Assembly (NCBI GenBank): GCA_040223615.1
Contig: JAVKFY010000069.1
Location: forward strand, 1-64,000
Source: Alphaproteobacteria bacterium
GTDB taxonomy: Bacteria > Pseudomonadota > Alphaproteobacteria > GCA-2731375
DNA length: 64,000 nucleotides
Direction: 5' to 3'
Position numbers and translations under genes: made by a program. Shown in pieces: positions 2,587-53,127 of the stretch; the first letter of the stretch is position 1; every line of letters starts with the position of its first letter. Under the pieces are notes generated by a model that searched no databases, was not told where the DNA came from, and saw only the letters and a program-made list of their open reading frames with translations.

Positions 2587-3819
2587 CTATTCGTGGCGCA
2601 GGGCGTCGATCGGGTTCAAACGGCTGGCGCGGTGCGCCGGATACAGGCCGAAAAACATGCCGACCAGGGCCGAGGACGCCACCGATAGCGCGATGATCGT
2701 CGGCTCGATAACCACCGGGAATTCGCCGCCGCGCGCAATCACCACCGTGACCAGCACGCCGGCGGCCAGGCCGATCAGGCCGCCGGTCAGGCACAGCACC
2801 ACCGCTTCGACCAGGAACTGGTTGCGGATGTCGCGCCGGCGCGCGCCCAAAGCCATGCGCAGGCCGATCTCGCGGGTCCGTTCGGTCACCGCGACCAGCA
2901 TGATGTTCATGATCCCGATGCCACCGACCACCAGCGAGATGCCAGCGGTCGCGGCCAGCAGCAGGCCGAGCTGGCTGGAGGTCTCGTTGCGCGCCATCAC
3001 CGACTCGGTGGCGTCACGCACGTAGAAATCGTCCTCGCCGCCGGGCGGCACCTTGCGCCGCGCCCGCAACACCGCTTCCATCTCCGACTTCACCGCGTCG
3101 AGCTGATCCGGCAACGCCGCCTCGGCGAGTATCAACCGGACCTCGTCGCGCACCGTCACCCGGCGCCCGAACAGCCGCTTGCGCGCCGTGGTGATCGGCA
3201 CGATCACCTGGTCGTCCTGATCCGATCCCCAGGCCGACTCGCCCTTGCGGTCGAGCACGCCGATGACGTCGAACGGCACCGCCCCGATCCGCACCGTGCT
3301 GCCAAGCGGCGAGGTATCGCCGAACAGTTCCTCGCGCACTTTCTCGCCGAGTAGCGCCACCTTGACGCCGCCGCGCACCTCGGCGTCGCTGAACGCGCGC
3401 CCCTCCGCCACCGACCAGTCACGCACTTCCAGGTAGTCGGCGTCGGCGCCGATGATGCCGGTGGTCCAGTTGGCGTTGCCGTAGACCAGCGGCTGGTTGC
3501 GACGCATGTAGCCGGCCACCGCGACCAGGCCCGGCACCTCGTCGCGCAGCGCCGCGACGTCGCGGTCGGTCAGCGGCGACGGCGGCTCCTCGCCCTGCTG
3601 GCGCGGCCGGCGCGAACTGTCGCCGGCCCGCACGGTCAGCAGGTTGGCACCGATATTGGCGATCTCCTCCTCGACCTTCTGCTTGGCGCCGCTGCTCACC
3701 GAGACCATGACGATGACCGAGCCGACGCCGATGATCACGCCCAGCATCGCCAGCAGGCTGCGCAACGCGTTGACCCTGAGCGCGACCAGCGCGATGCGCA
3801 CCGAGACCAGCAGGTTCAT
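2587..3819 (-). CDS. ABC transporter permease, MacB/FtsX family (DevC-like)
   Basis: 410 aa; N-terminal TM, large periplasmic domain, C-terminal FtsX-type 3-TM bundle; ATGA overlap with upstream ATPase gene. Confidence 0.85.
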   Translation of the reverse strand: MNLLVSVRIALVALRVNALRSLLAMLGVIIGVGSVIVMVSVSSGAKQKVEEEIANIGANLLTVRAGDSSRRPRQQGEEPPSPLTDRDVAALRDEVPGLVAVAGYMRRNQPLVYGNANWTTGIIGADADYLEVRDWSVAEGRAFSDAEVRGGVKVALLGEKVREELFGDTSPLGSTVRIGAVPFDVIGVLDRKGESAWGSDQDDQVIVPITTARKRLFGRRVTVRDEVRLILAEAALPDQLDAVKSEMEAVLRARRKVPPGGEDDFYVRDATESVMARNETSSQLGLLLAATAGISLVVGGIGIMNIMLVAVTERTREIGLRMALGARRRDIRNQFLVEAVVLCLTGGLIGLAAGVLVTVVIARGGEFPVVIEPTIIALSVASSALVGMFFGLYPAHRASRLNPIDALRHE

Positions 3820-4529
3820 GGCGTCGTCTCGGATGGCGCGGCGGCGCTGTCCTCGGCCAGGCGGCCATCGTGGAACACCAGGCGGCGACGCGCGCAGGCG
3901 GCGATCTCGGCCTCGTGGGTGACCAGCACAACGGTAATTCCGTCACGGTTGAGCGCGTCGAAGATTGCCATGATCTCGCCCGAGGTCTGGCTGTCGAGCG
4001 CGCCGGTCGGCTCGTCGGCGAGCAGGATCGAGGGCCGGTTGACCAGTGCGCGGGCAATCGCCACGCGCTGCTGCTGGCCGCCGGAAAGCTGCGCCGGGTG
4101 GTGGTCCATGCGATCGGCCAGGCCGACTCGCTCCAGGCTCTCCGTGGCGCGGCGCCGGCGCTCGGCGGCGCCGATGCCGGCATAGACCAGCGGCAGCTCG
4201 ACATTGTGCAGCGCCGTGGTCCGGGGCAGCAGGTTGAACTGCTGGAACACGAAGCCGATGGCCCGGTTCCGAAATGCCGCCAGCGCGTCGGCGCCAAGGC
4301 CGCCGAGATCGCTGCCGTCGACGGTCAGCCTGCCGGCGCTCGGCACGTCGAGCGCACCCAGCAGGTTCATGAAGGTCGACTTGCCGGACCCGGACGGCCC
4401 CATCACCGCGACATACGCGCCGGCCTCGACGGCGAGCGACACGCCGCGCAGCGCCGCCACCTCGGTCTCGCCCATCTGGTAGGTCTTGTGCACGTCCTCC
4501 GCGCGGATCAGCGCTGTCGCGGCGGCCAT
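3816..4529 (-). CDS. ABC transporter ATP-binding protein (MacB/LolD-type, DevA-like)
   Basis: Walker A GPSGSGKST, signature LSGGQQQRVAIARAL, Walker B ILLADEPTGALD. Confidence 0.9.
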   Translation of the reverse strand: MAAATALIRAEDVHKTYQMGETEVAALRGVSLAVEAGAYVAVMGPSGSGKSTFMNLLGALDVPSAGRLTVDGSDLGGLGADALAAFRNRAIGFVFQQFNLLPRTTALHNVELPLVYAGIGAAERRRRATESLERVGLADRMDHHPAQLSGGQQQRVAIARALVNRPSILLADEPTGALDSQTSGEIMAIFDALNRDGITVVLVTHEAEIAACARRRLVFHDGRLAEDSAAAPSETTP

Positions 4530-4539
4530 TACCCGAGCC

Positions 4540-5970
4540 TCACTCGACCGCCTCGCGTGCCCGCAACACCACGACGTCGCCGGCGTTCAGCGCGTCGCTC
4601 GATACCTCGGTGACGCGCGCGTCGGAAATCCCGAGGCGGACGCGTCGAGCGGCGATCTTGCCGTCGTCGAGCCGCACCCAGACACTGCCGAACCGTATCT
4701 GCGCCACGCGCTCGGAGATCGCATCGTAGTTGGCGAGCTGCGCCGGGGACAGAACGCCGGACATCGCCTGACGGAACCGTTGGCGCATCGCTTCGCGATC
4801 GACATCGCCCGTAGTCATCTGGGCGGCCATGCCGGCGAAGGCTTGCTTCAGTGCCGCCTGGGCCTGCTCGACCTGCTCCGGCGTCATCTCCAGCTGCGGC
4901 GCCAGCCGTTCCAGGATGCGCGTTGACCGGCCGCCTTCCTGATCGGATCTCTGCACCAGCGCCCGCGCGCCGCCACGCGGGCGGAACCGCAAGGCCCCGT
5001 TCGGCACGGTCAGCACGCCCGCCCGCTCGCCGGTGACGATATCGACATTCGCGGTCATGCCAGGCAACAGCAGCCGGCGCGGGTTCGCCGCCGCGATCAC
5101 CACAGTGTAGGTGACGACGTTCTGCGCCTCGACGCCGGCGAGGCGGATCTGCTGCACCCTGCCCTCAAAGTTCACGTCGGGGTGAGCGTCGACGGTGAAC
5201 TTCACGGTCTGGCCCTCCTCGACCTGGCCGATGTCGGCCTCGTCGACCTGGGCGTCAATCTGCACCTCGCGCAGATCCTGGGCGATGACGAACAGCTTCG
5301 GCGCGTTCATCGCCGCCGCCACCGTCTGGCCCAGGTCGATGGCGCGGTCGATCACCACGCCGTCGATCGGCGCCCGGATGATGGTGCGTTCCAGGTCGAT
5401 ACGGGCGCTCTTCAAGGCGGCCTGGCGCTGGCGCAGGGTCGCCTTGGCGTTGGCGAGCTGGGCCTCGGCCACCGCCACCTCGGCCTGGCTGGTGGCCAGC
5501 GCGGTCTTGGCGTTGTCGTAGGCCGCCGCCGACATGTTGCCGCGCTTCACCAGCGCCTCGGCGCGCCGGAAGCTGTCCTCCGCCTGGCTCAGGTTGGCGC
5601 GCACGCGGGCAATGGCGGCGGCCTGCACCGCGACACCGGCCTGGGCGACGGCGACCGTGGCTTCCGCCTCGCTGACCCTGGCCTCGAAGGTCTTCGGATC
5701 GAGCCGGGCGATCACGTCGCCCTCGGCGACCTGGCTATTGAAGTCGGCGCCGAGTTCGGCGATCTGACCGGAGAGCTGCGAGCCGACTTCGACGGTGACC
5801 AACGCGCGCACCTTGCCGGACGTCGAGACCAGACGGCGCACGTCGGCAACCGCGACCTCGCCGGTTTCCAGCGTGACGCTGTTCTCGGCCGGCTGTTGCC
5901 ATTGCACGACGCCATAGGCGCCAGCGCCAATCAGCAACAGCACGGCTGCGATCAGCCCGATCCGCTTCAT
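4540..5970 (-). CDS. efflux transporter periplasmic adaptor subunit (HlyD/MacA/DevB family)
   Basis: 476 aa, N-terminal signal anchor, long coiled-coil rich in A/Q/E, beta-barrel/lipoyl-like segments typical of membrane fusion proteins; immediately upstream of the ATPase/permease pair. Confidence 0.85.
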   Translation of the reverse strand: MKRIGLIAAVLLLIGAGAYGVVQWQQPAENSVTLETGEVAVADVRRLVSTSGKVRALVTVEVGSQLSGQIAELGADFNSQVAEGDVIARLDPKTFEARVSEAEATVAVAQAGVAVQAAAIARVRANLSQAEDSFRRAEALVKRGNMSAAAYDNAKTALATSQAEVAVAEAQLANAKATLRQRQAALKSARIDLERTIIRAPIDGVVIDRAIDLGQTVAAAMNAPKLFVIAQDLREVQIDAQVDEADIGQVEEGQTVKFTVDAHPDVNFEGRVQQIRLAGVEAQNVVTYTVVIAAANPRRLLLPGMTANVDIVTGERAGVLTVPNGALRFRPRGGARALVQRSDQEGGRSTRILERLAPQLEMTPEQVEQAQAALKQAFAGMAAQMTTGDVDREAMRQRFRQAMSGVLSPAQLANYDAISERVAQIRFGSVWVRLDDGKIAARRVRLGISDARVTEVSSDALNAGDVVVLRAREAVE

Positions 5971-6037
5971 CGCGTCCGTCCCCAGGGCTCAAACCATTGG
6001 CGGTTATACGCCCATTCGCGGTCGCTCCGGCGGGAAA

Positions 6038-6484
6038 TCAGGCCAGATCGGCGAGCACCTGATCGATATGCTCGGCCGGCACCACCTTGCCGTAGACCTT
6101 GGCGATCCGCCCTTCCGCGTCGATCAGGTAGCTGATCCGGGCCGGATAGCCCTGGTCGGCGCTGTCGGCCGCGCCATAGGCCATGGAGACCGACCGGTCC
6201 TCGTCCGACAGCAGGTCGTACGGGAAGTCGAACTTGGCCTTGAAGGCACGGTTGTCGGCCGGCGCGTCACAGCTGATGCCGATGACGACGGCATTGCGGC
6301 TGGTGAAGTCCTGGATTCGATCACGGAACCCTTTGCCTTCGATGGTTCAGCCCGGCGTATCGGCCTTCGGGTACCACCACAGCACCACCTGGTGCCCGCG
6401 GTAGTTCTCCAGGGCGGTGGCGACACCGTCCTGGTTGCGCAGGCTGAAGGCCGGTGCCTCGTCGCCCACTTTCAACAGCGCCAT
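6038..6484 (-). CDS. bcp: thiol peroxidase Bcp (peroxiredoxin, AhpC/TSA family) with in-frame TGA at the peroxidatic Cys position; putative selenocysteine-containing peroxiredoxin (alternatively a pseudogene)
   Basis: Manual translation of the reverse strand gives MALLKVGDEAPAFSLRNQDGVVATALENYRGHQVVLWWYPKADTPG[TGA]TIEGKGFRDRIQDFTSRNAVVIGISCDAPADNRAFKAKFDFPYDLLSDEDRSVSMAYGAADSADQGYPARISYLIDAEGRIAKVYGKVVPAEHIDQVLADLA (149 codons). It is co-linear with E. coli Bcp (YFYPKAMTPGCTVQACGLRD… LLSDED… ISFLIDADGKI). Codon 46, which is the peroxidatic Cys in Bcp, is TGA (plus-strand tca 6347-6349). RBS GGAGGA lies 7 nt upstream of the ATG at 6484. Confidence 0.6.
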
Positions 6485-6518
6485 GCGGTTTCCTCCGTCG
6501 TGGCGGCCTCGGAAATCG

Positions 6519-6947
6519 TCAGATCAACTTGGTGCAACTGGACAGCGCCATCTCCGCCGCCTGCGCCAGCGCCGCTTCTTCGGCGGCGATACCGGGCTCG
6601 GCCAGCGGCGCACTGCCGAATTGCGACTTGGTGATGCTGCGGCCGGCCAGCGTCACGCGGCACAGAACGATCAACTCGCCCTCGACCCGGCGCCGTTCGG
6701 TGATCTCGTAGCGCCAGCCCTCGGCGCCGAAGCGCTGGTCCAGCGCCTGCACGGCGGCGGAGCGTTCCGCATCCAGCGGTCCGTAGCGCTTGCGCGGTGC
6801 CAGTCCGGAACCGCTACCCGATACCGGGCTTGAGGTCGTCGCCGCGCGCGACGAGGCCGGTGTGCTCAGGATGCGGTCGAACTGCTCGCGGTTCTGCTCC
6901 AGCAGCTTGTCGAAGGCCGAGGTGAAGCCGCTGGGTTCGTCGGCCAT
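6519..6947 (-). CDS. hypothetical protein (142 aa) with weak Rad52/Mgm101-like motif
   Basis: Starts MADEPSGFTSAFDKLLEQNREQ…; its ATG overlaps the TGA of the upstream membrane-protein gene (ATGA at 6945-6949). Segment RKRYGPLDAE…ALDQRFGAEGWRYEI…LIVLCRVTLAGRS loosely resembles the Rad52 LGPEYIS…FGYNGW…VRVQLKDGS motif block. The match is low confidence. Confidence 0.4.
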   Translation of the reverse strand: MADEPSGFTSAFDKLLEQNREQFDRILSTPASSRAATTSSPVSGSGSGLAPRKRYGPLDAERSAAVQALDQRFGAEGWRYEITERRRVEGELIVLCRVTLAGRSITKSQFGSAPLAEPGIAAEEAALAQAAEMALSSCTKLI

Positions 6948-7468
6948 CAGTCGTTGCCGCGCCGGCGCACCGGCGGCTGCCGTCGGCCGGACCAGCCGCC
7001 GCGGAACAGCCGCACCAGGTGGTGCAGCAGGTAGAACACGATCGCCAGCAGCACCAGCAGCACGATCGCCAGCAACTGCTCGCCGAAGGTGCCGCCAATC
7101 ACCTCGCCCTTGCCGACCAGGTGTTCGCCCATCATCTCGATGATCTGCAGGATGCCGCCGGCGCAGAAGATCACCGCGACCAGGATCGCCACCTGCAGTG
7201 TCTCGAACACCAGCGCCTCGACGTCGAGCGAGTCGACCTTGCGGAAGATGTGCCGGGCGAAGGACGACCAGTGCGCCACCACGTAGCCGACCACGCCGAT
7301 CAGCGACGCGAACCAGAACACCGCGTTGTGGAATCGAATGTTCGGGATCGCCTCGACAACGAACTGCTCGAACGGCTGATAGTAGTAAAGGAAGATCAGC
7401 CCGATCACGACGGCGACGACGACAATCCAGAACCGGTTGCGTCGGAGGTCGTCGCTGTCGTCTGCCAT
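6947..7468 (-). CDS. small integral membrane protein (4 predicted TM helices), unknown function
   Basis: 173 aa, MADDSDDLRRNRFWIVVVAVVIGLIFLYYY…; natural codon usage and strongly hydrophobic helices; translationally coupled to the downstream gene. Confidence 0.55.
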   Translation of the reverse strand: MADDSDDLRRNRFWIVVVAVVIGLIFLYYYQPFEQFVVEAIPNIRFHNAVFWFASLIGVVGYVVAHWSSFARHIFRKVDSLDVEALVFETLQVAILVAVIFCAGGILQIIEMMGEHLVGKGEVIGGTFGEQLLAIVLLVLLAIVFYLLHHLVRLFRGGWSGRRQPPVRRRGND

Positions 7469-7662
7469 GATGTGCTGTCGCCGCCGCTAGCCTGTTGCGC
7501 GGCGAAATCCTAACCCAAATGCCCGACCTGTCAAAACCGTCCGCCCATCTGCGCATTGACGGTTTTCCACCTTCGGGCGAACATCGGTCCTGCCCACGGC
7601 TCGCTCATCGACGCCGGGGCCAAGGGGCGCCGTCTGAGCGCCGGTTTTGGGAGGAGTTCAAA

Positions 7663-8835
7663 ATGTACAAGGCCCTTATGGCCGCGACGGCGCTCGCGGC
7701 GCTGTCCTGGTCCGCCGCCGCGACGGCAGCGGACGTGAAGATCGGCGTGCTCTATCCGATCACCGGCGGCGGCGCCGTCTACGGCGTGCCGGCGATGGAA
7801 GGCAACCGGATGGCCGTCGAGGAGGTGAATGCCGCCGGCGGCATCCTCGGCAACAAAGTTGTGATCGTCGAGCGCGACAGCAAGCTGAATCCGGCCGAGG
7901 CCGCCGCTGCCGCCAAGGAAATGATCACCAAGGACGGCGTCAACGTGATCCTCGGCGGGCTCAGCTCGGCGGTCGGACTGGCGGTCTCGGAGGTCGCGCG
8001 ACAGGAGAAGGTGATCTACATCGCCACCATCCCCAAGACCATCCAGATGACCACGACGAAGCTGCACCCCTACGTGTTCCGCACCGCCTCGCACACCGAC
8101 TTCGAAGGTGACGCGATGGCGCAACTGGTGAAGCAGGTCGGCACCAAGAAGCTGTGCGACATCCAGCTCGACTACGCCTACGGCCACGACCTGGCCGCCG
8201 GCATCGAGAAGGGCATGAAGCGGCACGCGCCTGACATCCCGAAGGTGCTGGACCTGCGCTCCAAGCTCGGCGCCACCGACTACAACGCGGTGATCACCCA
8301 GCTCCTGGGCGCCGACTGCGACACCGTGACCAGCGGCCTGTGGGGCTCGCACTTCGTCAACTTCGCGCAGCAGGCCAAGCCGTTCGGCTTCTTCGAGCAG
8401 AAGCGCTACATCTCCGGCGGCGAGATCGCCAGCCACGAGATCGCCGGCAAGATGGGCAAGGACTATCCGGAGAACGTGTGGTCGAACACCTACGAGCTCT
8501 GGTACGACCACCCGACCAAGATGCACGAGGAGTTCCACGCCCGCCTGTCGAAGCGCACCGGCAGCGAGGAAACCGCGATGTGGCCGGTGCTGGCCTGGAT
8601 CGGCGTGAAGTTCTACGCCGGTGCCGCCAATGCCGCCGGCAGCCTGGACGCGGACAAGGTCGCGGAAAAGCTGAAGGGCATGTCGATCGACACGCCGGTC
8701 GGCAAGCGCACGATCAACCCCGCCGACCACCAGGCCGACACCGGTCAGTTCTGGGGTCCGATGGTGAACAAGGAAGGGTTCAAGTATCGGGTCATGGACC
8801 CGGTCACCTACATCCCGGCCAAGATCGACAACTAG
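7663..8835 (+). CDS. branched-chain amino acid ABC transporter substrate-binding protein (LivK/LivJ family)
   Basis: Start MYKALMAATALAALSWSAAATA (signal peptide) preceded by GGGAGGAG; periplasmic binding protein type I features (VKIGVLYPITGGGAVYG…). Confidence 0.85.
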   Translation: MYKALMAATALAALSWSAAATAADVKIGVLYPITGGGAVYGVPAMEGNRMAVEEVNAAGGILGNKVVIVERDSKLNPAEAAAAAKEMITKDGVNVILGGLSSAVGLAVSEVARQEKVIYIATIPKTIQMTTTKLHPYVFRTASHTDFEGDAMAQLVKQVGTKKLCDIQLDYAYGHDLAAGIEKGMKRHAPDIPKVLDLRSKLGATDYNAVITQLLGADCDTVTSGLWGSHFVNFAQQAKPFGFFEQKRYISGGEIASHEIAGKMGKDYPENVWSNTYELWYDHPTKMHEEFHARLSKRTGSEETAMWPVLAWIGVKFYAGAANAAGSLDADKVAEKLKGMSIDTPVGKRTINPADHQADTGQFWGPMVNKEGFKYRVMDPVTYIPAKIDN

Positions 8836-9876: not shown

Positions 9877-10818
9877 ATGACGCAGCCAATGTCCCTCCCG
9901 GTGATGGCCTTGTGCGCCATCCTGCTGGTGCTGGTGGCGCTGGTGCCGATGGCCGGTTCCGCCTACCTGATCGACGTGGCCACCGAGATTCTGATCTACG
10001 CGCTGTTCGCGCTGTCGTTGAACGTGATCATCGGCTACTCCGGCAACGTCTCGTTCGGCCACGCCGCCTACTTCGCCATCGGCGGCTACGTCAACGCGAT
10101 CCTGCTGACCACCTACGGCTGGCCGCTGTTCGCTGCGTTCGCCGCGGCCGTGCTGGTCTCGATGATCGCCGCCGGGGTGGTCGCCTACTTCTGCACCCGG
10201 CTGACCGACATCTACTTCGCCATGCTGACGCTGGCCTTCGCCATGTTCGTGTGGGCGGTGTGCTTCAAGTGGCGTTCGGTGACCGGCGGCGACGACGGCT
10301 TCGTCGGCATCTCGGTGCCCGAATGGATCGACGACCGCCACCGCTTCTTCTATTTCACCCTGGTCGTGGTGACGGTCTCTTCCGGCGTGCTGTGGATGAT
10401 CTGCCACTCCGCCTTCGGCCGGGCGCTGATCGCGGTGCGCGAGAACAGCACCCGGGCCGGCTTCGTCGGCATCGACACCCGGCTGATGCGCTGGTCGGCC
10501 TTCGTCGTCGCCGGCACCTTCGCCGGCATCGCCGGCGCCATCTTCGGCATGTTCCACCACGGCATGTACGTCGAATCGGCGTTCTGGACGCAATCGGCGA
10601 CGGTGCTGATCATGACCCTGCTGGGCGGGCTCTACTCGTTCTTCGGCCCGGCGATCGGCGCCGCCACGCTGTTCATCCTGCAGCGGCTGACCAACGAGTA
10701 CACCGAGTACTGGCCCACCGTGCTCGGCGTGATTCTACTCATCATCCTGCTGTTCCTGCCGGAGGGCCTGGCGGGCTTGGCCGGCCGGATCCGCGCGCGA
10801 CTGGCCCCGGGGCGCTAG
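9877..10818 (+). CDS. livM: branched-chain amino acid ABC transporter permease LivM
   Basis: 313 aa polytopic membrane protein; start 1 nt after livH stop. Confidence 0.85.
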   Translation: MTQPMSLPVMALCAILLVLVALVPMAGSAYLIDVATEILIYALFALSLNVIIGYSGNVSFGHAAYFAIGGYVNAILLTTYGWPLFAAFAAAVLVSMIAAGVVAYFCTRLTDIYFAMLTLAFAMFVWAVCFKWRSVTGGDDGFVGISVPEWIDDRHRFFYFTLVVVTVSSGVLWMICHSAFGRALIAVRENSTRAGFVGIDTRLMRWSAFVVAGTFAGIAGAIFGMFHHGMYVESAFWTQSATVLIMTLLGGLYSFFGPAIGAATLFILQRLTNEYTEYWPTVLGVILLIILLFLPEGLAGLAGRIRARLAPGR

Positions 10819-17063: not shown

Positions 17064-19799
17064 ATGCTGGGTATTGGAATTGCGTTGTTGGTTACCGCGA
17101 TCATCGTGATCGCGATCCTGTACGTGATTTCGATCTGGATATACAAACGCGCGCCCGCGAATATGTGCTTCATCCGCACCGGCTTCCTGGGCACCAAGGT
17201 CTGCCTCGGCAAGGGCGCCCTGGTCCTGCCGGTGTTCCACGAGGTCACCTGGGTCTCGCTGGAGACCATCAAGATCATCGTCAGCCGCGCCCGCGAGCAG
17301 GCGGTGCTGACGATCGACAATATCCGCGTCGACATCGGCGTCGAGCTCTATGCCCACGTCGGCCACACCGACGACATGGTGCTGACCGCCTCGCGCTCGC
17401 TGGGTGAGAAGACTTTCGATGCCGAACAGGTCCGCGCCCTGCTGGAGGCCAAGGTGGTCTCCGCCGTGCGCTCCTATGCGGCGACCATGACGCTGCAGCA
17501 GTTGCACGAGAACCGCGACGCCTTCGCCAAGGGCATCAAGGAGGCGGTGCTGGAGAGCTTCTCCGCCAACGGCCTGATGCTGGAGGAGGTGACCATCACC
17601 TCGCTGGAGCAGGCCTCCAAGGAATTCTTCAAGACCGACAACGTGTTCGACGCCGAGGGCCTGAAGGTGATCACCGACATCACCTCCAACGCCCGGCGCG
17701 AGGTGCACTCGACCGAGAAGCGCACCACCGTGGCGATCCGCCAGAAGGAACTCGACACCCAGCTCGAACTGCTGGAGATCGAGCGCAACGAGGCCTTCGC
17801 GCGCGCCAACCAGGACAAGGAAGTCGCCAACGAGCAGGCCCAGCAGCTCGGCCAGAAGCAGATCTTCGTGCTCGACCAGCGCCGCGCGGTCGAAGAGAAG
17901 GAGATCGAGAACGAAAAGGAACTGAACCGCACGCGCACCGAGCGCGACATATCCGCCAGCGAGGAAGAGCGCCGCCGCGAGGTCTCCGAGATCCGCAATG
18001 CGCTGACCCTGGAGCAGGAGCGCCGCGACCGCGAGATCGCCATCATCGCCAAGGCGCAGGAAGAGGAACTGGCCAACATCAGCCGCCGCCTCACCCTGGA
18101 GAAGGCCGAGCGCGACCGCGAGATCGAGTTGCTGTCGAAGTCGGAGCAGGTCGAGCTGGCGGAGATCCGCCGCGGCCTGACCCGGGAGCGGGCCGAGAAG
18201 GACCGAGAGATCGAGCTGATCGACAAGGACCGCGAACGCGAGCAGGCCGACATCCAGCGTCTGACCGCGATCACCCGGGAGTCCGAGACCGCCCGCGACG
18301 AACGCCATCGCGCCGAGCGCGAGGCCGGCCTCGCGATCCGCCAGCGCGAGAAGGAAGTCCACCTCCTGAATCTCGACATCGAGAAGACCGAGGCCTTCGC
18401 CGACGCCCTGCAGGAGACCGAGGTCTCCAACGAGCGCGCCCGCGTACTGGCCGAGCAGCAGCGCTACATCCTCGACCGCCGGCTGGAGGTCGCGGAGGAA
18501 GAGATCGACAAGGCGCTGGCCATCGAGAAGGCGCAGATCGCCAAGGAGGCCGCTGCCGCCGAGGCCGCCAAGGCGCAGGACGCAGCTGAAATCGCCCGCG
18601 CGTTGGCCCGCGAGACCGAGGAACGCGCCCGCGCCATCGCGCTGGCCGGCAAGGACGCCGAACTACGCCGCACCGAGGTCCAGCAGGCGCTGACCGTCGA
18701 GGTCGAGGAGCGCAACCGCGAAATCGCCCTGATCGCCAAGGACCAGGAGCGCGAGAGCGCCGACATCCGCCGCATGCTGGCGCGCGAGCTGGAGGAGCGC
18801 GACCGCGAGATCGCACTGACCCAGAAGCAGAAGCAGCTCGAGGCGGCCGAGGTCGACAAGCTGACCACCACCGCCGAACGCGAGCGCGCCGCGCACGAGG
18901 TCGAATCCGTTCGCCACGTCGCCGACGCCCAGCGGACCAAGGAGATCGAGCTGATCGCCGCTGCCCAGGCCGCCGAGCGCCAGCGCATCGAGGAAGACGC
19001 CAAGGCGCAGATCACGCGCATGCACATGGTCACCCAGTCCGAGGCCCGCAAAGCCTCGGCCAAGGACGATGCCGAGGCGATCATGGTGCGCGCCCAGGCC
19101 GGCGCCGACGCGCAGAAGATCACCGCCGACGGCATCGAGCGCGAGGCCGGCGCGGTCGGGCGCGCCGAGGCCGAGGTCGAGGGCCTGCGCGTGCGCAACA
19201 CGCAACGCGCGCTGGAGGCCGAGGCCAAGGGCATCGAGGCCAAGGCCGAGGCGCTGGCCAAGTACAACGAGGCCGCGACCTTCCTGGAGCTTGCCAAGCT
19301 GCGCATCGAGGCCGAGCGCGAGATCCACGTGCAGCAGGCCACCTCGATGGGCACAGCACTCAGCGGCGCGCAGATCCGCATGTACGGCGACGGCGGCAAT
19401 GGCACCGTCGACACCATCCGCGGCATGTTCACCAAGGGCTTCGCGCTGGGCGAGGTGCTGGAGGGCGTGGCGCAGTCGCTGCCCGAAGGACTGCGCCGGC
19501 GGCTCTCGGCGACCGGCCTGGCCGGCCTGATCGGCGCCGCGCCGTCGAACCGCGACCTGCTGGCGGCGATGGGCGCGTTGCAGGACCTGGTGCGTGGCAG
19601 CTTGAGCAACCGCGAGGCCCGCTCGGTGCCGTTCCCCGAGGCGGTGCAGACGCTCGCGGATGCGGCCGATGGCGACAGCCAGACCCGCGCGGTGGAGCTG
19701 CTGGGCGCGCTGAACGCCGACGACGTGCTGGCCGACGTGCCGTTCGAGACCGTCTGGTCGCTGCTTCAGGCCATGGCCCGCGCCGCCTCCGACGAGTAG
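17064..19799 (+). CDS. flotillin/SPFH (band 7) family protein with extended coiled-coil repeat region
   Basis: N-terminal TM helix plus SPFH domain (…VLPVFHEVTWVSLETIKIIVSRAREQAVLTIDNIRVDIGVELYAHV…). This is followed by ~450 aa of E/R/K-rich heptad repeats (…ERDREIELL…, ≥6 units of ~29 aa) and a C-terminal flotillin tail. Confidence 0.8.
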   Translation: MLGIGIALLVTAIIVIAILYVISIWIYKRAPANMCFIRTGFLGTKVCLGKGALVLPVFHEVTWVSLETIKIIVSRAREQAVLTIDNIRVDIGVELYAHVGHTDDMVLTASRSLGEKTFDAEQVRALLEAKVVSAVRSYAATMTLQQLHENRDAFAKGIKEAVLESFSANGLMLEEVTITSLEQASKEFFKTDNVFDAEGLKVITDITSNARREVHSTEKRTTVAIRQKELDTQLELLEIERNEAFARANQDKEVANEQAQQLGQKQIFVLDQRRAVEEKEIENEKELNRTRTERDISASEEERRREVSEIRNALTLEQERRDREIAIIAKAQEEELANISRRLTLEKAERDREIELLSKSEQVELAEIRRGLTRERAEKDREIELIDKDREREQADIQRLTAITRESETARDERHRAEREAGLAIRQREKEVHLLNLDIEKTEAFADALQETEVSNERARVLAEQQRYILDRRLEVAEEEIDKALAIEKAQIAKEAAAAEAAKAQDAAEIARALARETEERARAIALAGKDAELRRTEVQQALTVEVEERNREIALIAKDQERESADIRRMLARELEERDREIALTQKQKQLEAAEVDKLTTTAERERAAHEVESVRHVADAQRTKEIELIAAAQAAERQRIEEDAKAQITRMHMVTQSEARKASAKDDAEAIMVRAQAGADAQKITADGIEREAGAVGRAEAEVEGLRVRNTQRALEAEAKGIEAKAEALAKYNEAATFLELAKLRIEAEREIHVQQATSMGTALSGAQIRMYGDGGNGTVDTIRGMFTKGFALGEVLEGVAQSLPEGLRRRLSATGLAGLIGAAPSNRDLLAAMGALQDLVRGSLSNREARSVPFPEAVQTLADAADGDSQTRAVELLGALNADDVLADVPFETVWSLLQAMARAASDE

Positions 19800-19809
19800 T
19801 CGCGCCCCG

Positions 19810-20919
19810 ATGGCCGCCTACGACGTCGTCCTGGAGCACGTTGACAAGACCTACCCCGGCGGCGTGCGCGCGGTGATCGACTTCAATGCCGAGATCGAAC
19901 GCGGCGAGTTCGTCGCCATGCTCGGCCCCTCCGGCTGCGGCAAGACCACGACATTGCGCATGATCGGCGGCCTGGAAGAGGCCACGACGGGCAAGATCTA
20001 CATCTCCGGCGAGGACGTCACCGACCTGCCGCCCTCGCACCGCAACACCGCGATGATGTTCCAGTCCTTCGCCCTGTTCCCGCACCGGACGGTGGCGCAG
20101 AATGTCGAGTTCTCGCTGAAGATGAAGGGCATCGACCGCGACGCCCGCATGCGCGAGGTCTACCGCATGCTGGAGATGGTCGGGCTGGACCAGCTCGCCA
20201 ACCGGCGCCCGGCCGACTTGTCCGGCGGCCAGCAGCAGCGCGTGGCACTGGCCCGCGCGCTGATCAGCCGGCCGACCGTGCTGCTGCTCGACGAGCCGCT
20301 GGGCGCGCTCGACTACTCGCTGCGTCAGCAGATGATGGTCGAGCTGAAGCGCATCCAGCGCGAGCTGAACATCACCTTCGTCATGGTCACGCACAGCCAG
20401 CAGGAGGCGATGTCGATGGCCGACAAGGTGATCGTGATGTCCGACGCGCTGATCCAGCAGACCGGTACCAGCAAGGAAATCCACGAGCAGCCGAAGACCC
20501 GGTTCGTCGCCGAGTTCATCGGCAACAACAATCTGTTCCAGGGCCGGATTACCTCGCGCTCCGGTTCCATGGTGTTCGTGGAATCGCTGGGCAACCTGTT
20601 CTACGTGCGCGTCGCCGACGACCAGCGCGACGTCGAGATCGGCCGCGAGGTGCATTTCTCGGTGCGCTCCGACCTGATGGCGACCGGCGTGCGCGAAGAC
20701 ATGGCCAACCGGGTGGAGGGCACGTTCGTGGCCTCCGAATTCCTCGGCACCTTGCAGACCGACGTGTTCGAGATCGCGCCCAAGCTCTACGTCTCCGTCG
20801 AGCACCACCGCCAGGCACAAGACCGCGAATACCGCGTCGGCGAGGTCGAGACCCTGTGCTGGCCCGCCGATGCCGGCGTCCTGCTGGAAGAAGCCGCCCG
20901 CCCGCCGGAAGCGGCTTAG
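19810..20919 (+). CDS. ABC transporter ATP-binding protein, PotA/MalK/FbpC type with C-terminal TOBE-like domain (orphan; no adjacent permease)
   Basis: Walker A GPSGCGKTT, signature LSGGQQQRVALARAL, Walker B LLLDEPLGALD; starts 11 nt after flotillin stop. Confidence 0.85.
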   Translation: MAAYDVVLEHVDKTYPGGVRAVIDFNAEIERGEFVAMLGPSGCGKTTTLRMIGGLEEATTGKIYISGEDVTDLPPSHRNTAMMFQSFALFPHRTVAQNVEFSLKMKGIDRDARMREVYRMLEMVGLDQLANRRPADLSGGQQQRVALARALISRPTVLLLDEPLGALDYSLRQQMMVELKRIQRELNITFVMVTHSQQEAMSMADKVIVMSDALIQQTGTSKEIHEQPKTRFVAEFIGNNNLFQGRITSRSGSMVFVESLGNLFYVRVADDQRDVEIGREVHFSVRSDLMATGVREDMANRVEGTFVASEFLGTLQTDVFEIAPKLYVSVEHHRQAQDREYRVGEVETLCWPADAGVLLEEAARPPEAA

Positions 20920-24243: not shown

Positions 24244-25797
24244 TCACGCGAAGAAACCGTGCACGTACCAGCGCGGCTCGGCGGCGGCGGGATAGAGGCC
24301 GTCGCGGTAGACCCACAGGCGCTGCCCCTCGCCGTCTTCCAGCCGGTAGTAGTCGCGCGTCGTCGTCGCCAGCTCGGTCTCATCCTGGCGCCACCATTCC
24401 GGCGCGATGCGTTCCGGGCCGTCGGCGCGGCGGATGCGCCACGACCGGCCGCGCCAGCGTAGAAGCACCGGCGGCCCGTCCGGCACCTCCGCGACCGCGT
24501 CCACCGGTTCCGGCCGGTGCAGCAATTCCACCGGACGCGGCACGGTCTCGGCCCAACTCACCTTTGCCGGCGGCGCCAGCGCCGGCGCGGCGATGACCGC
24601 GCGCTCCGGCAGGTGGCTCTCGTGCGGGTCGAGCCGGACCACGGCCCGCGGTCCCAGCCGGTTGGTCAGCCGGTCGACCAGCAACGCCAGCGCCGGGTCG
24701 TGCGCCGCCTCCGGCCCGAAGCTGGGGAGGTTGACCTGCCGGTCGGCCAGCGCCTCGGTACGTGGCGCCGCCAGGGTCAGCACATCGGCGCCAAGCCCGA
24801 GGTCGAGGTCCTCCAGCCGCTCGCGCACCAGCCGGGCGAGGTGCGCCGGCGTGCGGCTCGGCCGGGTCAGGCCGGCGACCAGCTCGCTGACCTCGCCGTC
24901 GCTGCGATAGGCGCGGAACACCAGCCGGCGCGCGCCACGCCCGGCCTGACGCAGCGAACGGCACAGCGTGGCGCTGAGCCGTTCCGCGGCGGCAGCGAGG
25001 TCATCCAAGTGGCCGATCGGCTCGGGGAACACCATGCGGGCCAGGAAGGCCGGCGCCGGCTGGCGCGGCGTCAGGCTCTCGTTCTGCCGGCCGGCCGCGA
25101 GATCGAGCCGACTCGCCAGGGCCGGCCCGAACCGCTGCGCCAGCGCGGCGCGCGGCAGCGACGCGACCTGCGCCACCGTGTGCAGGCCGAGTCGGCCCAG
25201 TTCGTCGGCCTGTCCGGCCGGCAGCCGCAGCGCCGCCACCGGCAGCGGCGCCAGCGCCACCAGGTCCTCGCCCGGCGGCACGATGGTGCGCGACAGGTGC
25301 GCGAAACGGGCGATGCCCCAGGCCGCGGCGGCCGAGCCGGCGATGGCCAGGCGCGCCGCGATGCCCGCCTCGCCGAGCCGTCGCGCCAGGTCGGCCAGGA
25401 GCTTGGCCTCACCGCCGAACAGGTGCGCGCAGCCGGTCAGGTCGACGACCAGTCCGTCGTCGCCGTCGACCGCCGCCCACGGGCTGTAGCGCGTCGCCCA
25501 GTCGGCCAGCGCCACCAAGGCTTTCGCATCGGCCGCCGGCGCCGCGTCGCGCACCGTCAACGCCGGCACGATGGCGCGGGCGTCGGCCAGCGAGCGTCCC
25601 GGCGCCAGGCCGATCAACCCGGCGGCCTCGTTGACCGCGGTGAGCCTGAGCGCGCCGGCCTCCGGCGCCACCAGCACCAGCGGCCGTTCAGGCGATGGCG
25701 GCGCGCTTCCCGGTTGCGCGTTCTTCTGGCGCCGCCAGGCCCGGTTCAAGCGGTCGGTCGGCCACCTCGGCAGCCAGATGGACAGTACTCGACGCAT
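24244..25797 (-). CDS. imuB: ImuB, Y-family DNA polymerase-like protein of the imuA-imuB-dnaE2 mutasome
   Basis: MRRVLSIWLPRWPTDRL… N-terminus characteristic of ImuB. Confidence 0.85.
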   Translation of the reverse strand: MRRVLSIWLPRWPTDRLNRAWRRQKNAQPGSAPPSPERPLVLVAPEAGALRLTAVNEAAGLIGLAPGRSLADARAIVPALTVRDAAPAADAKALVALADWATRYSPWAAVDGDDGLVVDLTGCAHLFGGEAKLLADLARRLGEAGIAARLAIAGSAAAAWGIARFAHLSRTIVPPGEDLVALAPLPVAALRLPAGQADELGRLGLHTVAQVASLPRAALAQRFGPALASRLDLAAGRQNESLTPRQPAPAFLARMVFPEPIGHLDDLAAAAERLSATLCRSLRQAGRGARRLVFRAYRSDGEVSELVAGLTRPSRTPAHLARLVRERLEDLDLGLGADVLTLAAPRTEALADRQVNLPSFGPEAAHDPALALLVDRLTNRLGPRAVVRLDPHESHLPERAVIAAPALAPPAKVSWAETVPRPVELLHRPEPVDAVAEVPDGPPVLLRWRGRSWRIRRADGPERIAPEWWRQDETELATTTRDYYRLEDGEGQRLWVYRDGLYPAAAEPRWYVHGFFA

Positions 25798-45607: not shown

Positions 45608-46576
45608 CTACCTCTGGTATCCCAGCCGCTCCGGTCCCGGATCGGCCGCCATCGCCTCGCCGCCGCGCACCAGGTCGCGAAAGCGATGCGACAGCTCCAC
45701 GCCGGCCACCGCGTGCCCGCGGTTCTTGCGCAGCACCAGGTCGACCGTCTCGCGAAACGGCACCAGCGCTTCGTTGACCAGTTGCAGGTTCACCGAGTGC
45801 CAGATGTTGGCGACGTACTCGTCGAACTGCGCGGTGTCGAGGTCCTTCAGCCGCTCGAAATATTCGTTGTCCTTGTCCGCGGTGGCCTCGCGCGCCTGCA
45901 CGAAACGGTCGTGGAACCAGCTCTCCACATCGTCCGGCGCCGCCTCGACGTAGACCGCGCAGTCCAGGAAGTCGCGCACGCCATAGGCCTCGCCGTGATA
46001 GTGGAACTGTTCCGACAGCAGGTTCACGCCCTCCAGGACCATCACCTCGCCGATTTCGATCAGGCGGCTCTGGCCGGCGACGATGTCCTTCTGCTCGTGG
46101 CTGTAGACCGGGATCTCCTGCGGCGCCCGCGACGGATGGCGCAGGCCGGTCAGGAACGCCAGCAAACGTGCCACGTCGAAGCTCTCCGGAAAGCCCTTGC
46201 GGCTCATCCGGCCCATGCCCTCCAGCATGTGATTGGGATAGAGGAAGGCGTCGGTGGTGACCACCACGGTCCCGTCCAGGCCGAGCCGCGACAGCCGGTT
46301 GCGCAGTTGCAGCGCCAGCGTCGACTTGCCGACCGCCACCGAGCCGGTGATGCCGACCAGGAACGGCCCGGCGTCGTAGGCCAGCCGCCGGTGCCGGTTG
46401 TGCAAGTGCCACAGCAGTTGCGCCAGCGCCACCACGCCGGGGTCGCCATCGACCGTTCCCAGGCTCGACGACCCCTCCTCCGCGGCGACGAAGCGCGCGA
46501 ACGCTTCCGGGGTCAATCGATCGAAGCGAGCGTCCATGGCGACCATATGCCCCCAGCCATCTCGCGGTTGCAACAT
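45608..46576 (-). CDS. coaA: type I pantothenate kinase
   Basis: GITGSVAVGKST P-loop and overall co-linearity with CoaA; 4 nt upstream of the thiolase gene. Confidence 0.75.
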   Translation of the reverse strand: MLQPRDGWGHMVAMDARFDRLTPEAFARFVAAEEGSSSLGTVDGDPGVVALAQLLWHLHNRHRRLAYDAGPFLVGITGSVAVGKSTLALQLRNRLSRLGLDGTVVVTTDAFLYPNHMLEGMGRMSRKGFPESFDVARLLAFLTGLRHPSRAPQEIPVYSHEQKDIVAGQSRLIEIGEVMVLEGVNLLSEQFHYHGEAYGVRDFLDCAVYVEAAPDDVESWFHDRFVQAREATADKDNEYFERLKDLDTAQFDEYVANIWHSVNLQLVNEALVPFRETVDLVLRKNRGHAVAGVELSHRFRDLVRGGEAMAADPGPERLGYQR

Positions 46577-46659
46577 GCGGCATGAAAAAGCCGCCGCAGA
46601 ACCTGCGGCGGCTTCTTAGGTTCGAACCCTAGTCGATTCTATAGGCTGCCTTATTAGCG

Positions 46660-47490
46660 CTATTGCGAAATCCACAGACGCATATTCTCGCGGGCGACGA
46701 AGGCGCCTTCCCAGGCGAAGCGCGCTTCGCTCTCCAGACGCTCCATGAAGATGTCCTCATGGTCCGGGTCGTGGTGGAAGATCGCCAGCCGCTTGGCGTT
46801 CGCCATCTGGCACAGCCGCACGCCCTCCTCCCAGGTCGAGTGGCCCCAGCCGACCTTGGAGAGGAACTCCTTCTCCGTGTAGGTGCTGTCGTAGATCACC
46901 AGGTCGGCACCCTCGATCAGGTCGAGGATATTCTGGTTCGGCTTGCCAGGTATGTGCTCGGTGTCGGTGACGTAGCACAGCGAATTGCCGCGATAGTTGA
47001 TGCGGTAGCCGGTGGCGTTGTCGGGGTGGTTGAGCTGCGTGGTGACGATCTCGACCTCATCGCCGAGCATGAAGTTGTCGCCGGCGACGAAATCCTCGAA
47101 GTCCATCTGCGACTGCATGGTCTCCAGCGGCACCGGGAAGGTCGGCTGATTCATCTGCCCGGCGATCACGTCGCGGATGCCGATATTCTTGTCGAACAGA
47201 TGGCCGGCCATGATCTTGAAGCTGAAGTCCGGCCGAAACGCCGGCGAGAAGAACGGGAAGCCGTTGATGTGATCCCAATGCGTATGCGACAGCAGGATCG
47301 TGGCCTCCTTGCAGTTCTTCTTGGTCAGCCAGTGGCCGAGATTGCGCAGGCCGGTACCACAATCGAAGATGATCTTGTGGCCGCCGCAGCTCACCTCGAT
47401 ACAGCTGGTGTTGCCGCCAAAGGCGACATATTTGGCCGACGGGCAAGCGATACTGCCGCGCACGCCCCAGAACTTCAGCTTGAAACTCAT
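46660..47490 (-). CDS. MBL-fold metallo-hydrolase
   Basis: HTHWDH motif (LLSHTHWDHINGFP) and downstream His/Asp ligands. Confidence 0.8.
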   Translation of the reverse strand: MSFKLKFWGVRGSIACPSAKYVAFGGNTSCIEVSCGGHKIIFDCGTGLRNLGHWLTKKNCKEATILLSHTHWDHINGFPFFSPAFRPDFSFKIMAGHLFDKNIGIRDVIAGQMNQPTFPVPLETMQSQMDFEDFVAGDNFMLGDEVEIVTTQLNHPDNATGYRINYRGNSLCYVTDTEHIPGKPNQNILDLIEGADLVIYDSTYTEKEFLSKVGWGHSTWEEGVRLCQMANAKRLAIFHHDPDHEDIFMERLESEARFAWEGAFVARENMRLWISQ

Positions 47491-47759
47491 GCCGGGCCTC
47501 GTCCATCAAATTCAGCCTCGGCGACACGTCCTGGCAAGGCCAACCGAGGCAATTCATCGCGCGTGCCGCTCGTCGGCATCACGGTCCCTCTATGGGCAAC
47601 GGGTATTGTTGTTTTTCCGCATGCCCTCGAAAACGGTCACATTGCATTTAGGCCGATACGCCCCCGAATCACTGAGCGCGAATGATTATAGGTCTCTTCA
47701 GCCGCATCTCGCCAAAATAAGTCACAAGGCTTAACAACGAATGTGACGGCAATCACTCA

Positions 47760-48932
47760 TCATCGCGCCAGAAGCTCTTGTTCCACCAGCGTCGCCCAGT
47801 AGCTGGCGCCCATCGGCAGGATCTCGTCGTTGAAGTCGTAATTCGGGTTGTGGACCATGCAGCCGCCCTCCTGTCCGACCCCGTTGCCGAGCCAGATGTA
47901 GCAGCCCGGCTTGGCTTTCAGCATCCAGGCGAAGTCCTCCGAGCCCATCATCGGCTGCAGATGGCGCAGCACGTTCGGCTCGCCGACGATGTCGGCCGCC
48001 GCGCGGGCCGCGATCTCGGTTTCCGTGTCGGTATTGATGGTCGGCGGGTAGCGCCTGTCGTAGCTCACCTTGACCGTGGCGCCATGCGCGGCGGCGACGC
48101 CGGCCGCGATGCGCCGGATTTCGGCCTCGATCATGTCCTGGGTCGTCTCGGAAAAGGCGCGGCAGGTCCCCGAAAAGGTCGCGGTCTCCGGAATGACGTT
48201 GGTGGTGAAGCCGCTATGGAACTGCGTCACCGAGACCACCGCCTGGTCCAGCGGATCGGTGCTGCGCGAGACGATCCGCTGCATCGCGGTCACCATCTCC
48301 GCGCCGATCACGATCGGGTCGATGCCCTTGTGCGGGAAGGCGCCATGCGCGCCGACGCCAGTCACCTCGACCTCGAAGAAATCGGCCGAGGCCATCGCCG
48401 GACCGTTCAGCACCCCGACCTTGCCGACCTCGATGCCCGGCATGTTGTGCATGCCATAGACCTGTTCGGCCGGGAACATGTCGAACAGGCCGTCGTCGAC
48501 CATCACCCGGCCGCCGGCCTCGTTCTCCTCCGCCGGCTGGAAGATGAAATAGACGGTGCCGTCGAAATTCCTGGTCTCGGCCAGATACTTGGCGGCGCCC
48601 AGCAGCATCGTGGTGTGACCGTCGTGGCCGCAGGCATGCATCTTGCCGTCATGCTGGCTCTTGTGCGCGAAGCCGTTCAGCTCCTGCAGGTCGAGCGCGT
48701 CCATGTCGGCGCGCAGGCCGATCTTCTTCGCCGAGCTGCCCGCGCTCAGCGTGCCGACGACCCCGGTCTTGGCCAGGCCGCGATGCACCTCGATGCCGAA
48801 CTCGCCCAGCTTCTTGGCGACGATCTCCGAAGTGCGGTGTTCCTCGAAGGCGGTTTCCGGATGGGCGTGAATATCATGACGCCACGCGACCATCTCGGGC
48901 TGGAATTCGGCGATACGGTTCTTGATCGGCAT
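47760..48932 (-). CDS. M20 family amidohydrolase (hippurate hydrolase/N-acyl-amino acid amidohydrolase type)
   Basis: MHACGHDGH metal-binding motif, dimerisation domain. Confidence 0.85.
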   Translation of the reverse strand: MPIKNRIAEFQPEMVAWRHDIHAHPETAFEEHRTSEIVAKKLGEFGIEVHRGLAKTGVVGTLSAGSSAKKIGLRADMDALDLQELNGFAHKSQHDGKMHACGHDGHTTMLLGAAKYLAETRNFDGTVYFIFQPAEENEAGGRVMVDDGLFDMFPAEQVYGMHNMPGIEVGKVGVLNGPAMASADFFEVEVTGVGAHGAFPHKGIDPIVIGAEMVTAMQRIVSRSTDPLDQAVVSVTQFHSGFTTNVIPETATFSGTCRAFSETTQDMIEAEIRRIAAGVAAAHGATVKVSYDRRYPPTINTDTETEIAARAAADIVGEPNVLRHLQPMMGSEDFAWMLKAKPGCYIWLGNGVGQEGGCMVHNPNYDFNDEILPMGASYWATLVEQELLAR

Positions 48933-50984: not shown

Positions 50985-51047
50985 CGCCACGGCAGCGTGC
51001 CACACCGCCCGCCGGCGCGCTAGGATCGCGGCCAGGGGAGAAACGCC

Positions 51048-51233
51048 ATGACCGACACGGTGATCGACGCCGACGGGCATATCTGCGAGCCGCCGGAGAT
51101 GTGGCGCGACTATGTCCCGGCCAGATTCCGCGACCGGGTGATCCGGGTCGAGCGCGGCGACGACGGCCGCGACTGGCTATGGGTGAACGGCAAGGAACGG
51201 CGCGAGCGACATGTGCAAGGACGGCGCAATTGA
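51048..51233 (+). pseudogene. 5' fragment of an amidohydrolase-2 family gene (truncated at island boundary)
   Basis: MTDTVIDADGHICEPPEMWRDYVPARFRDRV… matches the conserved N-terminus of PF04909-type amidohydrolases but stops after 61 codons, where GC content drops. Confidence 0.5.
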
Positions 51234-51351
51234 CGACTGTGTCGACGCTAAAGCTGTCGCAACCTGATCAGAACGGTTTGAAAACCCTCTGGGCGGCGAA
51301 GCGCCTGGAACGCCGCTCTTCGAGGGAAGGGCGTAGCTCCTTCCCCGTTCA

Positions 51352-52071: not shown

Positions 52072-52095
52072 TTGATGTCCAGTGTCGGTAGTGTC

Positions 52096-53100: not shown

Positions 53101-53127
53101 GGCTAATGTGGTACCAAATATAGTACT

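Follow-up and report, generated by a model that had tools for sequence, protein, structure and literature searches.

A Bcp/PrxQ-type peroxiredoxin gene with an in-frame TGA at its peroxidatic codon, a probable selenoprotein gene of a Rhodospirillales-like bacterium

What is the meaning of a stop codon that stands exactly where a peroxiredoxin should have its catalytic residue, in a gene that is otherwise complete? This question is raised by prx, a gene on the minus strand of the 64,000-nucleotide stretch of DNA that we analysed (hereafter the window). The source genome is uncultured and Rhodospirillales-like, with ~68% GC. The original prediction described the frame as an uninterrupted, full-length homologue of Bcp whose sole stop is a TGA at the peroxidatic codon, a description that was confirmed by translation and by domain matches. 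When we translated the minus strand from 6038 to 6484, we obtained 148 codons plus a terminal TGA, and the sole internal stop of the frame is codon 46, a TGA (plus-strand 6347-6349) embedded in the peptide WWYPKADTPG-TGA-TIEGKGFRDR. The features of the gene are as follows.

6038..6484, minus strand: complete gene for a putative 148-residue selenoprotein, a peroxiredoxin of the Bcp/PrxQ type; ATG at 6484-6482, ordinary terminal TGA at 6040-6038
6347..6349, minus strand: in-frame TGA, predicted to encode selenocysteine (Sec46) at the peroxidatic position; motif PxxxTxxU with P39, T43 and U46
6491..6496, minus strand: Shine-Dalgarno-like GGAGGA, 6 nt before the ATG, by direct reading of the sequence
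6137..6139, minus strand: codon of Arg116 (within ARISYLID), the arginine that is conserved in the active site of peroxiredoxins, from alignments

The family searches were run with a protein in which Cys had been put in at codon 46. The Pfam domain AhpC-TSA (PF00578) was matched with 111.9 bits (cut-off 26, E 2.4e-32), residues 6-129 being aligned with positions 1-123 of the 124 in the model. Both the active-site motif P39-K-A-D-T43-P-G-U46 and the distal Arg116 are present, the latter without variation in our alignment A1 and aligned with the arginine of RI[ST]F[LV]ID in the structure 3DRN and in Escherichia coli Bcp. The best NCBIfam model is that of Bcp, PRK09437 (E 1.6e-33, residues 1-147 against positions 1-152 of 156), with a score of 115.8 bits, which is below the equivalog cut-off of 140. 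The nearest solved structures all belong to BCP/PrxQ proteins, 3DRN being the first (E 1.3e-25), followed by 5ENU, 5IPH and 3GKK. Judged by these matches the protein is Bcp-like, yet no equivalog of E. coli Bcp, because PRK09437 is its best model and is nevertheless missed at the cut-off, while its top relatives in the PDB are all BCP/PrxQ.

When we aligned the protein with the sequence of E. coli Bcp, we found 40% identity over 149 aa, with the TGA aligned with the peroxidatic Cys and Gly51 aligned with the +5 resolving Cys. With Gly at that position, the protein lacks the +5 resolving Cys that defines the atypical 2-Cys type. The likeness to E. coli Bcp and the PrxQ-BCP proteins (PRK09437; 3DRN, 3GKK, 5IPH) extends to a collinear full length, to the active-site Pro, Thr and Arg and to a monomer size of ~150 aa; the differences from E. 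coli Bcp are the predicted Sec at the peroxidatic site and Gly51 at +5. Nor is there a Cys at the helix-alpha3 position that carries the resolving Cys in Xanthomonas Bcp; our protein has Lys82 there.

Two other selenoprotein families were considered and rejected. Membership in PrxU, the type that the original prediction had in mind when it spoke of a selenocysteine peroxiredoxin, does not hold, since the score with the 233-residue model NF040737 was 36.6 bits, far below its cut-off of 270, and the protein belongs instead to the Bcp/COG1225-type family named "Prx, TxxU". It shares with PrxU of Eubacterium acidaminophilum a Sec at the peroxidatic position that would come from UGA; PrxU is a separate peroxiredoxin subfamily, of which our protein is no orthologue. 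The thiol peroxidase selenoprotein Prx-SUH was discarded on a score of 25.7 bits against a cut-off of 298 (NF045827) and on the motif, which is TxxU and not CxxU.

How the codon is dealt with in sequence databases could be seen from a protein search that returned 1090 relatives. We read the column of codon 46 in the best 120 of the 1090 and found W in 61 and Cys in 39, while 19 were fragments of 101-104 aa that start with "MEGKGFRD...", two codons past the position of the TGA. The W entries read "TPGWT". We fetched the DNA of two of them and the codon was TGA in 2/2, because of which we regard W at this column as an artefact of code-4 gene calling on short contigs. The Cys forms P0001, P0002 and P0007 have TPGC or TPVC at the Sec column, and the peroxidatic Cys of the BCPs in the PDB is likewise aligned with the TGA.

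A scan of genomes, in which each GTDB species was represented by one, yielded 353 relatives, and in the best 80 of these 353, which come from 80 species, the homologous codon is TGA without exception (80/80). With tandem paralogues and the window included, TGA was found in 86/86 genes from 81 loci, which contain 83 distinct 84-mers. The labels of the best 80 loci include Alphaproteobacteria/Rhodospirillales, Gammaproteobacteria, Immundisolibacterales, Ectothiorhodospiraceae, Gemmatimonadetes, Latescibacterota, SAR324, Lambdaproteobacteria and Verrucomicrobiales, and many of the related loci are from marine MAGs. The closest relative, locus L002 from an uncultured Rhodospirillales MAG, is 93% identical and syntenic, and has the TGA. 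At this very column, where the original prediction had proposed to look for an alternation of Cys and Sec, TGA stands in 86 genes and Cys in the forms named above.

Could the TGA be an error of sequencing or assembly, the true codon being TGC or TGT? It is one base away from either, and Cys forms do exist (P0001, P0002). Against this, a Logan contig (L084, from SRR26209086) is identical to the window in the 84 nt around codon 46, TGA included, and the TGA is also present in the 93%-identical L002 and in 79 other species, so that we give this explanation practically no weight.

A second possibility is that prx is a pseudogene, a Bcp gene whose catalytic codon was turned from TGC/TGT into TGA by a nonsense mutation, or one stranded after a recent loss of the Sec machinery. 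In favour of this, standard gene callers split prx into fragments of 45 aa and 48 aa. However, 86 homologous genes from many phyla share this TGA, and all are intact on either side of it and 145-185 aa long; further disabling mutations in relatives, which the original prediction had named as the mark of a pseudogene, were looked for and none was seen in 86/86 genes. Nei-Gojobori comparisons of the window gene with its relatives, 3′ of the TGA, gave dN/dS values of 0.14 for L002, 0.18 for L003, 0.29 for L004 and 0.26 for L013 (the ungapped comparison with L007 was left out because an indel makes it invalid), and the values upstream of the TGA are comparable. Because dN/dS lies between 0.14 and 0.29 there, the downstream two-thirds of prx is, by its substitution pattern, translated and under purifying selection, which argues against a pseudogene.

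If the codon is translated, it might be translated as something other than Sec. UGA46 could stand for Trp, Cys or Gly, through genetic code 4 or 25 or through near-cognate suppression, and the product would be a protein without selenium, made by SECIS-independent read-through or reassignment. Many database entries do translate the codon as W, and the Sec machinery itself can misinsert Cys at Sec codons under limiting selenium. However, the W calls are code-4 prediction artefacts on short contigs where the DNA reads TGA, and Trp or Gly at the peroxidatic site would abolish catalysis, yet P39, T43 and R116 are conserved. Moreover, TGA is the commonest ordinary stop in the window (23/40 GC3-supported ORFs) and also terminates prx, so that decoding at codon 46, if it takes place as we propose, must be local and context-dependent, with a genetic code that is not reassigned. 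A local conserved hairpin, as described below, is predicted by SelB-dependent recoding and would be needless under a global reassignment. We consider this reading very improbable. When we scanned the window for other in-frame TGAs flanked by GC3-supported coding sequence, only prx and three ordinary gene junctions or antisense frames came up, and no further candidate Sec gene was found within the 64 kb.

The preferred reading, insertion of Sec at codon 46, predicts a SECIS element in the mRNA close to the UGA. Two candidate hairpins had been put forward for this role in the original prediction, and only one of them stood. The sequence GAACC-N13-GGUUC, which spans the UGA, is indeed present in the window, but was rejected, since its 5′ arm varies among relatives (TGAACC, TGAACG or TGAAGC) and its pairing is in competition with that of the conserved hairpin. 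The other, GGGUUC-CGUGAUC-GAAUCC, is conserved, and when the RNA following the UGA was folded, as had been suggested, the first 48 nt gave this hairpin as their MFE structure. The elements of the candidate SECIS are the following.

6313..6331, minus strand: predicted upper hairpin of the SECIS, with a 6-bp stem GGGUUC/GAAUCC and a 7-nt loop CGUGAUC; from MFE folding and conservation
6305..6340, minus strand: whole predicted SECIS, including a tentative 4-bp lower stem and an internal loop; from MFE folding

In the upper stem, 6331-6326 is paired with 6318-6313, and in the lower stem GAAG (6340-6337) with CUUC (6308-6305). The hairpin lies at +18 to +36 nt after the UGA and its loop starts 24 nt after the U of the UGA, with GU at loop positions 2-3, that is, at nucleotides 26-27 when this U is counted as 1. 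Such a position agrees with what has been published on SECIS elements in bacteria.

A comparison with the SECIS of E. coli fdhF illustrates this. Both hairpins are part of the coding sequence and follow the UGA closely on its 3′ side, and the apical loop of both has a GU, at much the same distance; in fdhF the loop nucleotides are G23 and U24. In contrast to fdhF, the window hairpin has another sequence, an upper stem that is shorter, with 6 bp, a loop of 7 nt and no obvious bulged U, and its spacing is one codon longer.

The conservation of the hairpin is strong at the level of the RNA. Among 72 distinct sequences, 98.8% of the cells of the upper hairpin are paired; pair 21-35 is GU in 56, AU in 10 and GC in 6 of them, and never AC. 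In the set of 83 sequences the equivalent counts for the one variable stem pair are G-U in 67, A-U in 10 and G-C in 6, and A-C never occurs, while pair 21-33 is a U-U or C-U mismatch in 5/83. The apical loop CGUGA, including its G, is invariant in 83 distinct sequences. The lower helix is paired in 93.4%, with one-sided changes only (G-C/G-U and A-U/G-U) and with pair 13-42 open in 18/72 sequences.

The synonymous sites tell the same story. Within the hairpin, Phe is encoded by TTC in 82/82 cases, whereas outside of it Phe is TTC in 62 and TTT in 21; Ile is ATC in 76/76, against 24 ATC and 11 ATT outside. The first hairpin Arg is CGT in 83/83, and the second is CGA (64) or AGA (19), so that its third base is A in 83/83. 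The neighbouring codons have a synonymous entropy of 0.7-1.8 bits, and the flanking four-fold sites one of 1.4-1.8 bits. In its own genome, the hairpin is spelled with rare codons (GGG, CGT, GAT and CGA account for 10.8%, 7.9%, 15.8% and 2.7% of the codons of their amino acids, respectively), and codon usage alone would yield this spelling of G-F-R-D-R-I with a joint probability of ~3e-5. The motif occurs once in the window, where 0.01 occurrences are expected by chance, and has 0 mismatches to the family consensus. A conserved hairpin with synonymous sites frozen in this way is characteristic of SECIS elements in bacteria, and this is the function that we propose for it.

Two Cys forms are informative in this respect. 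In L085 (P0001) the residues GFRDR are encoded as GGT TTC CGG GAT CGG and the hairpin is destroyed, while in L086 (P0002) the hairpin is still present, as expected if the change from Sec to Cys there was recent.

Other tests of the structure gave null results. A covariation test of the hairpin found no double compensatory changes, and its score was not above those of shuffled alignments (142/500); support for an RNA structure comes for this reason from conservation, from one-sided changes and from the freezing of synonymous sites. There is no thermodynamic excess compared with shuffled sequences, either for the 48 nt (-9.5 kcal/mol, z = +0.2) or for an 83-nt fold (z = -1.07), and at gathering thresholds Rfam reported only a tRNA-Thr in the window and no family for the hairpin.

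Taken together, the 86 TGA genes, the purifying selection and the near-invariant SECIS-like hairpin strongly support the claim of the original prediction that this TGA encodes Sec and is no random nonsense mutation. We put the probability that prx is a functional Sec-decoding peroxiredoxin gene, with Sec46 at the peroxidatic position, at about 90%, on the strength of comparative sequence data. In such a gene, a ribosome arriving at UGA46 would meet the hairpin 18-36 nt downstream, possibly extended by the 4-bp lower stem, and the hairpin would act as a SECIS that recruits SelB-GTP-Sec-tRNA(Sec), with the result that Sec would be inserted instead of termination taking place. The terminal TGA of prx has no such hairpin and would end translation normally.

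We also looked for the decoding machinery. With E. coli queries, tblastn found no selA, selB or selD in the 64-kb window or in the ±10-kb flanks of the related loci; when SelA, SelB and SelD were searched for in the window and in 84 loci, the outcome was two weak matches only, which we take to be spurious. No tRNA-Sec was detected by ARAGORN in the window and 60 loci, nor by Rfam in the window. A 64-kb stretch that has no sel genes says nothing about the rest of the genome. Their absence from the window would nonetheless suit a pseudogene, the second form of which supposes a loss of the Sec machinery. The shared TGA, the low dN/dS and a hairpin that matches the family consensus and has been retained in rare codons cannot be accounted for by a simple nonsense mutation; a loss of the machinery could be reconciled with them only if it was very recent, and we therefore hold a pseudogene to be improbable. 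With prx recognised as a Sec gene, the Rhodospirillales-like source genome is flagged as probably selenium-utilising.

A Sec-containing family that corresponds to our gene is well established. "Prx (TxxU)", assigned to COG1225/PF00578, is listed as a bacterial selenoprotein family in four surveys and reviews (PMC1088965, Tables 1 and 3; PMC2398784, Table 2; PMC13188914, Table 1; PMC1794560, Table 1). It was reported in 2005, and among the selenoprotein families of the sea it is one of the most abundant (PMC1088965, PMC2398784, PMC13188914). The surveys by Zhang, Gladyshev and co-workers counted 43 TxxU genes in the Sargasso Sea, 253 genes of Prx, PF00578, in the GOS data (PMC2398784, Table 2) and 12 genes among completely sequenced bacteria, for which five changes from Cys to Sec were inferred (PMC1794560, Table 1), and a Prx with the motif PxxxTxxU is still listed in a 2026 review (PMC13188914). 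The first Sec-peroxiredoxin shown experimentally was PrxU of E. acidaminophilum (cited in PMC13188914).

Our protein shares with Prx (TxxU) the AhpC/TSA fold, the Bcp-like COG1225 type and the predicted replacement of the peroxidatic Cys by Sec in PxxxTxxU; the genes have in common a SECIS stem-loop just downstream, whose small apical loop contains a G, and in both cases Cys homologues are widespread and marine and other environmental bacteria are a rich source of members. We infer from motif, COG and MAG habitats, by which the sub-clade was matched, that prx is a further member of Prx (TxxU) that differs in nothing essential. It is one more member of a selenoprotein family known since 2005 and no new kind of system, and by itself the gene opens no new question.

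The next point concerns the residue with which Sec46 might react. The original prediction suggested that the Cys of GISCDAP could pair with it as a selenenyl-sulfide. When we examined the distinct Sec forms, we found Cys72 (GISCD) in 23/85 and Phe at this position in 50; Cys93 is likewise present in 23/85, and 39/86 Sec forms (45%) are without any Cys. Cys72 was consequently rejected as a family-wide resolving residue and the proposed pairing is no family feature; in this one protein a Sec46-Cys72 selenenyl-sulfide is possible and is not required. In the aligned Sec forms there is no conserved resolving Cys, so that the chemistry conserved in the family would be a 1-Sec cycle with reduction by an external thiol. 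In this proposed cycle, which is modelled on the family, H2O2 or organic hydroperoxides would be reduced through a selenolate to selenenic acid cycle at a standard peroxiredoxin active site (Pro39, Thr43, Sec46 and Arg116), and the selenenic acid would most likely be reduced directly by an external thiol, that is, by thioredoxin or by glutaredoxin/GSH. Such a "1-Sec" mechanism would be analogous to that of the 1-Cys BCPs.

As for the origin of the Sec forms, a crude NJ tree, which is indicative only, groups 145 TGA forms in a single clade, within which 4 Cys tips are nested, and puts 1 TGA form inside a Cys clade, with 6 changes by the Fitch count. This topology suggests that Sec had one main origin from Cys and that it reverted occasionally. 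A broader proposal, which we advance tentatively and hold to be somewhat doubtful, is that the clade is an obligate "1-Sec" lineage which arose once from a Cys-Bcp and spread over at least six phyla, with a near-invariant SECIS within GFRDRIQ, with no resolving Cys and with occasional reversion to Cys, P0002/L086 being a revertant that carries a "fossil" SECIS. If this were true, the lineage would offer a clean natural system for asking why an aerobic peroxidase keeps Sec, and also for studying the co-evolution of SECIS and protein constraints. In any case, the data set assembled here, with 86 TGA genes, a near-invariant SECIS candidate, Cys revertants with and without the hairpin and members free of Cys, is material for work on Sec/Cys exchange and on SECIS evolution.

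Recognition of the gene also matters for annotation. Among the best 120 of the 1090 proteins, 61 with Trp and 19 truncated, it is mis-annotated almost everywhere, and reading the codon as Sec corrects the annotation and rescues a gene that is otherwise split or mis-translated.

Finally, the surroundings of prx are as the original prediction had given them, both intergenic distances being correct: a gap of 34 nt separates it from the end of the upstream ORF at 6519, and 67 nt from the start of the downstream HlyD-like gene at 5970. Its upstream neighbours are two unknown ORFs, 173 and 142 aa long, and downstream is a set of genes for an HlyD-like protein, a MacB ATPase and a MacB-FtsX permease. 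No operon partner conserved across the related prx loci was found. Among the related loci compared, only L002 has this neighbourhood in synteny, and a homologue of the 142-aa upstream protein is also located just upstream of prx in L005, L007 and L056.

The clade of selenocysteine (Sec) peroxiredoxins to which the window gene (6038-6484, minus strand; TGA at 6347-6349) belongs contains two relatives with cysteine at the catalytic position, one at 120-572 of locus L086 (protein P0002) and the other at 10001-10447 of locus L085 (protein P0001). In the former the SECIS-like hairpin is intact (GGG TTC CGT GAT AGA ATC C) and is apparently a fossil SECIS left after a recent Sec-to-Cys change; in the latter the hairpin has been lost through synonymous changes.

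Most public protein entries of the clade carry tryptophan at the catalytic position (61 entries within P0003-P0093, among the 120 closest database proteins), because the TGA was read with genetic code 4 on short contigs. The DNA behind two such entries was checked at L088 1009-1470 and L089 139-582, where the codon is TGA in each case, and the tryptophan-carrying entries include the NCBI-sourced P0013, P0019 and P0022. Another 19 entries are 5′-truncated fragments that start at an M or V two codons past the TGA.

A second TGA-containing peroxiredoxin paralogue was observed directly 3′ of the first in an ENA contig (L001, 10312-10890), an Immundisolibacterales MAG (L006, about 10736) and a gammaproteobacterial MAG (L010, about 6759). 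In all three the downstream paralogue has the motif YPKAGTYG-U-S, it carries the GGGUUCCGUGAUCGAAUCC hairpin as in the first copy, and in L001 its C-terminus is longer. The arrangement in the three loci is a tandem Sec-Prx pair. About 9 kb from the pair in L001, a gene with a Molydop_binding domain (19512-20315, minus strand) reaches past the locus end; this domain forms the C-terminus of molybdopterin oxidoreductases, FdhA among them.

The surroundings of the peroxiredoxin gene in the window are as follows.

2587-5970, minus strand, tripartite efflux set directly 3′ of the gene: HlyD-family membrane-fusion protein (476 aa), MacB-type ABC ATPase (237 aa) and MacB_PCD/FtsX permease (410 aa)
6519-7468, minus strand, two unknown ORFs upstream of the gene and on its strand
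7507-7534, minus strand, sigma-70-like promoter (TTGACA-16-TAGGAT) upstream of the 173-aa ORF

No terminator-like site was found between this promoter and the MacAB-like genes (5800-7700), so a single transcript could span the ORF pair, the peroxiredoxin gene and the efflux set. The 173-aa ORF had no Pfam match, and its homologues occur in L002, L003, L004, L020 and L041; the sole match of the 142-aa ORF was a sub-threshold DSRM_2, and a homologue adjoins the peroxiredoxin gene on its upstream side in L005, L007 and L056. The arrangement with the efflux set is kept only in L002, a syntenic uncultured Rhodospirillales MAG.

Three further in-frame TGAs with high-GC3 flanks occur in the window.

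24244-24246, minus strand, ordinary stop between adjacent same-frame genes
49447-49449, plus strand, probably in an antisense frame
58865-58867, minus strand, ordinary stop between adjacent same-frame genes

None of the three has the SECIS motif. The GC content is 0.59-0.62 at 46001-48000 and 50001-56000, compared with about 0.68-0.70 in the remaining window, and this segment may be foreign or otherwise atypical.
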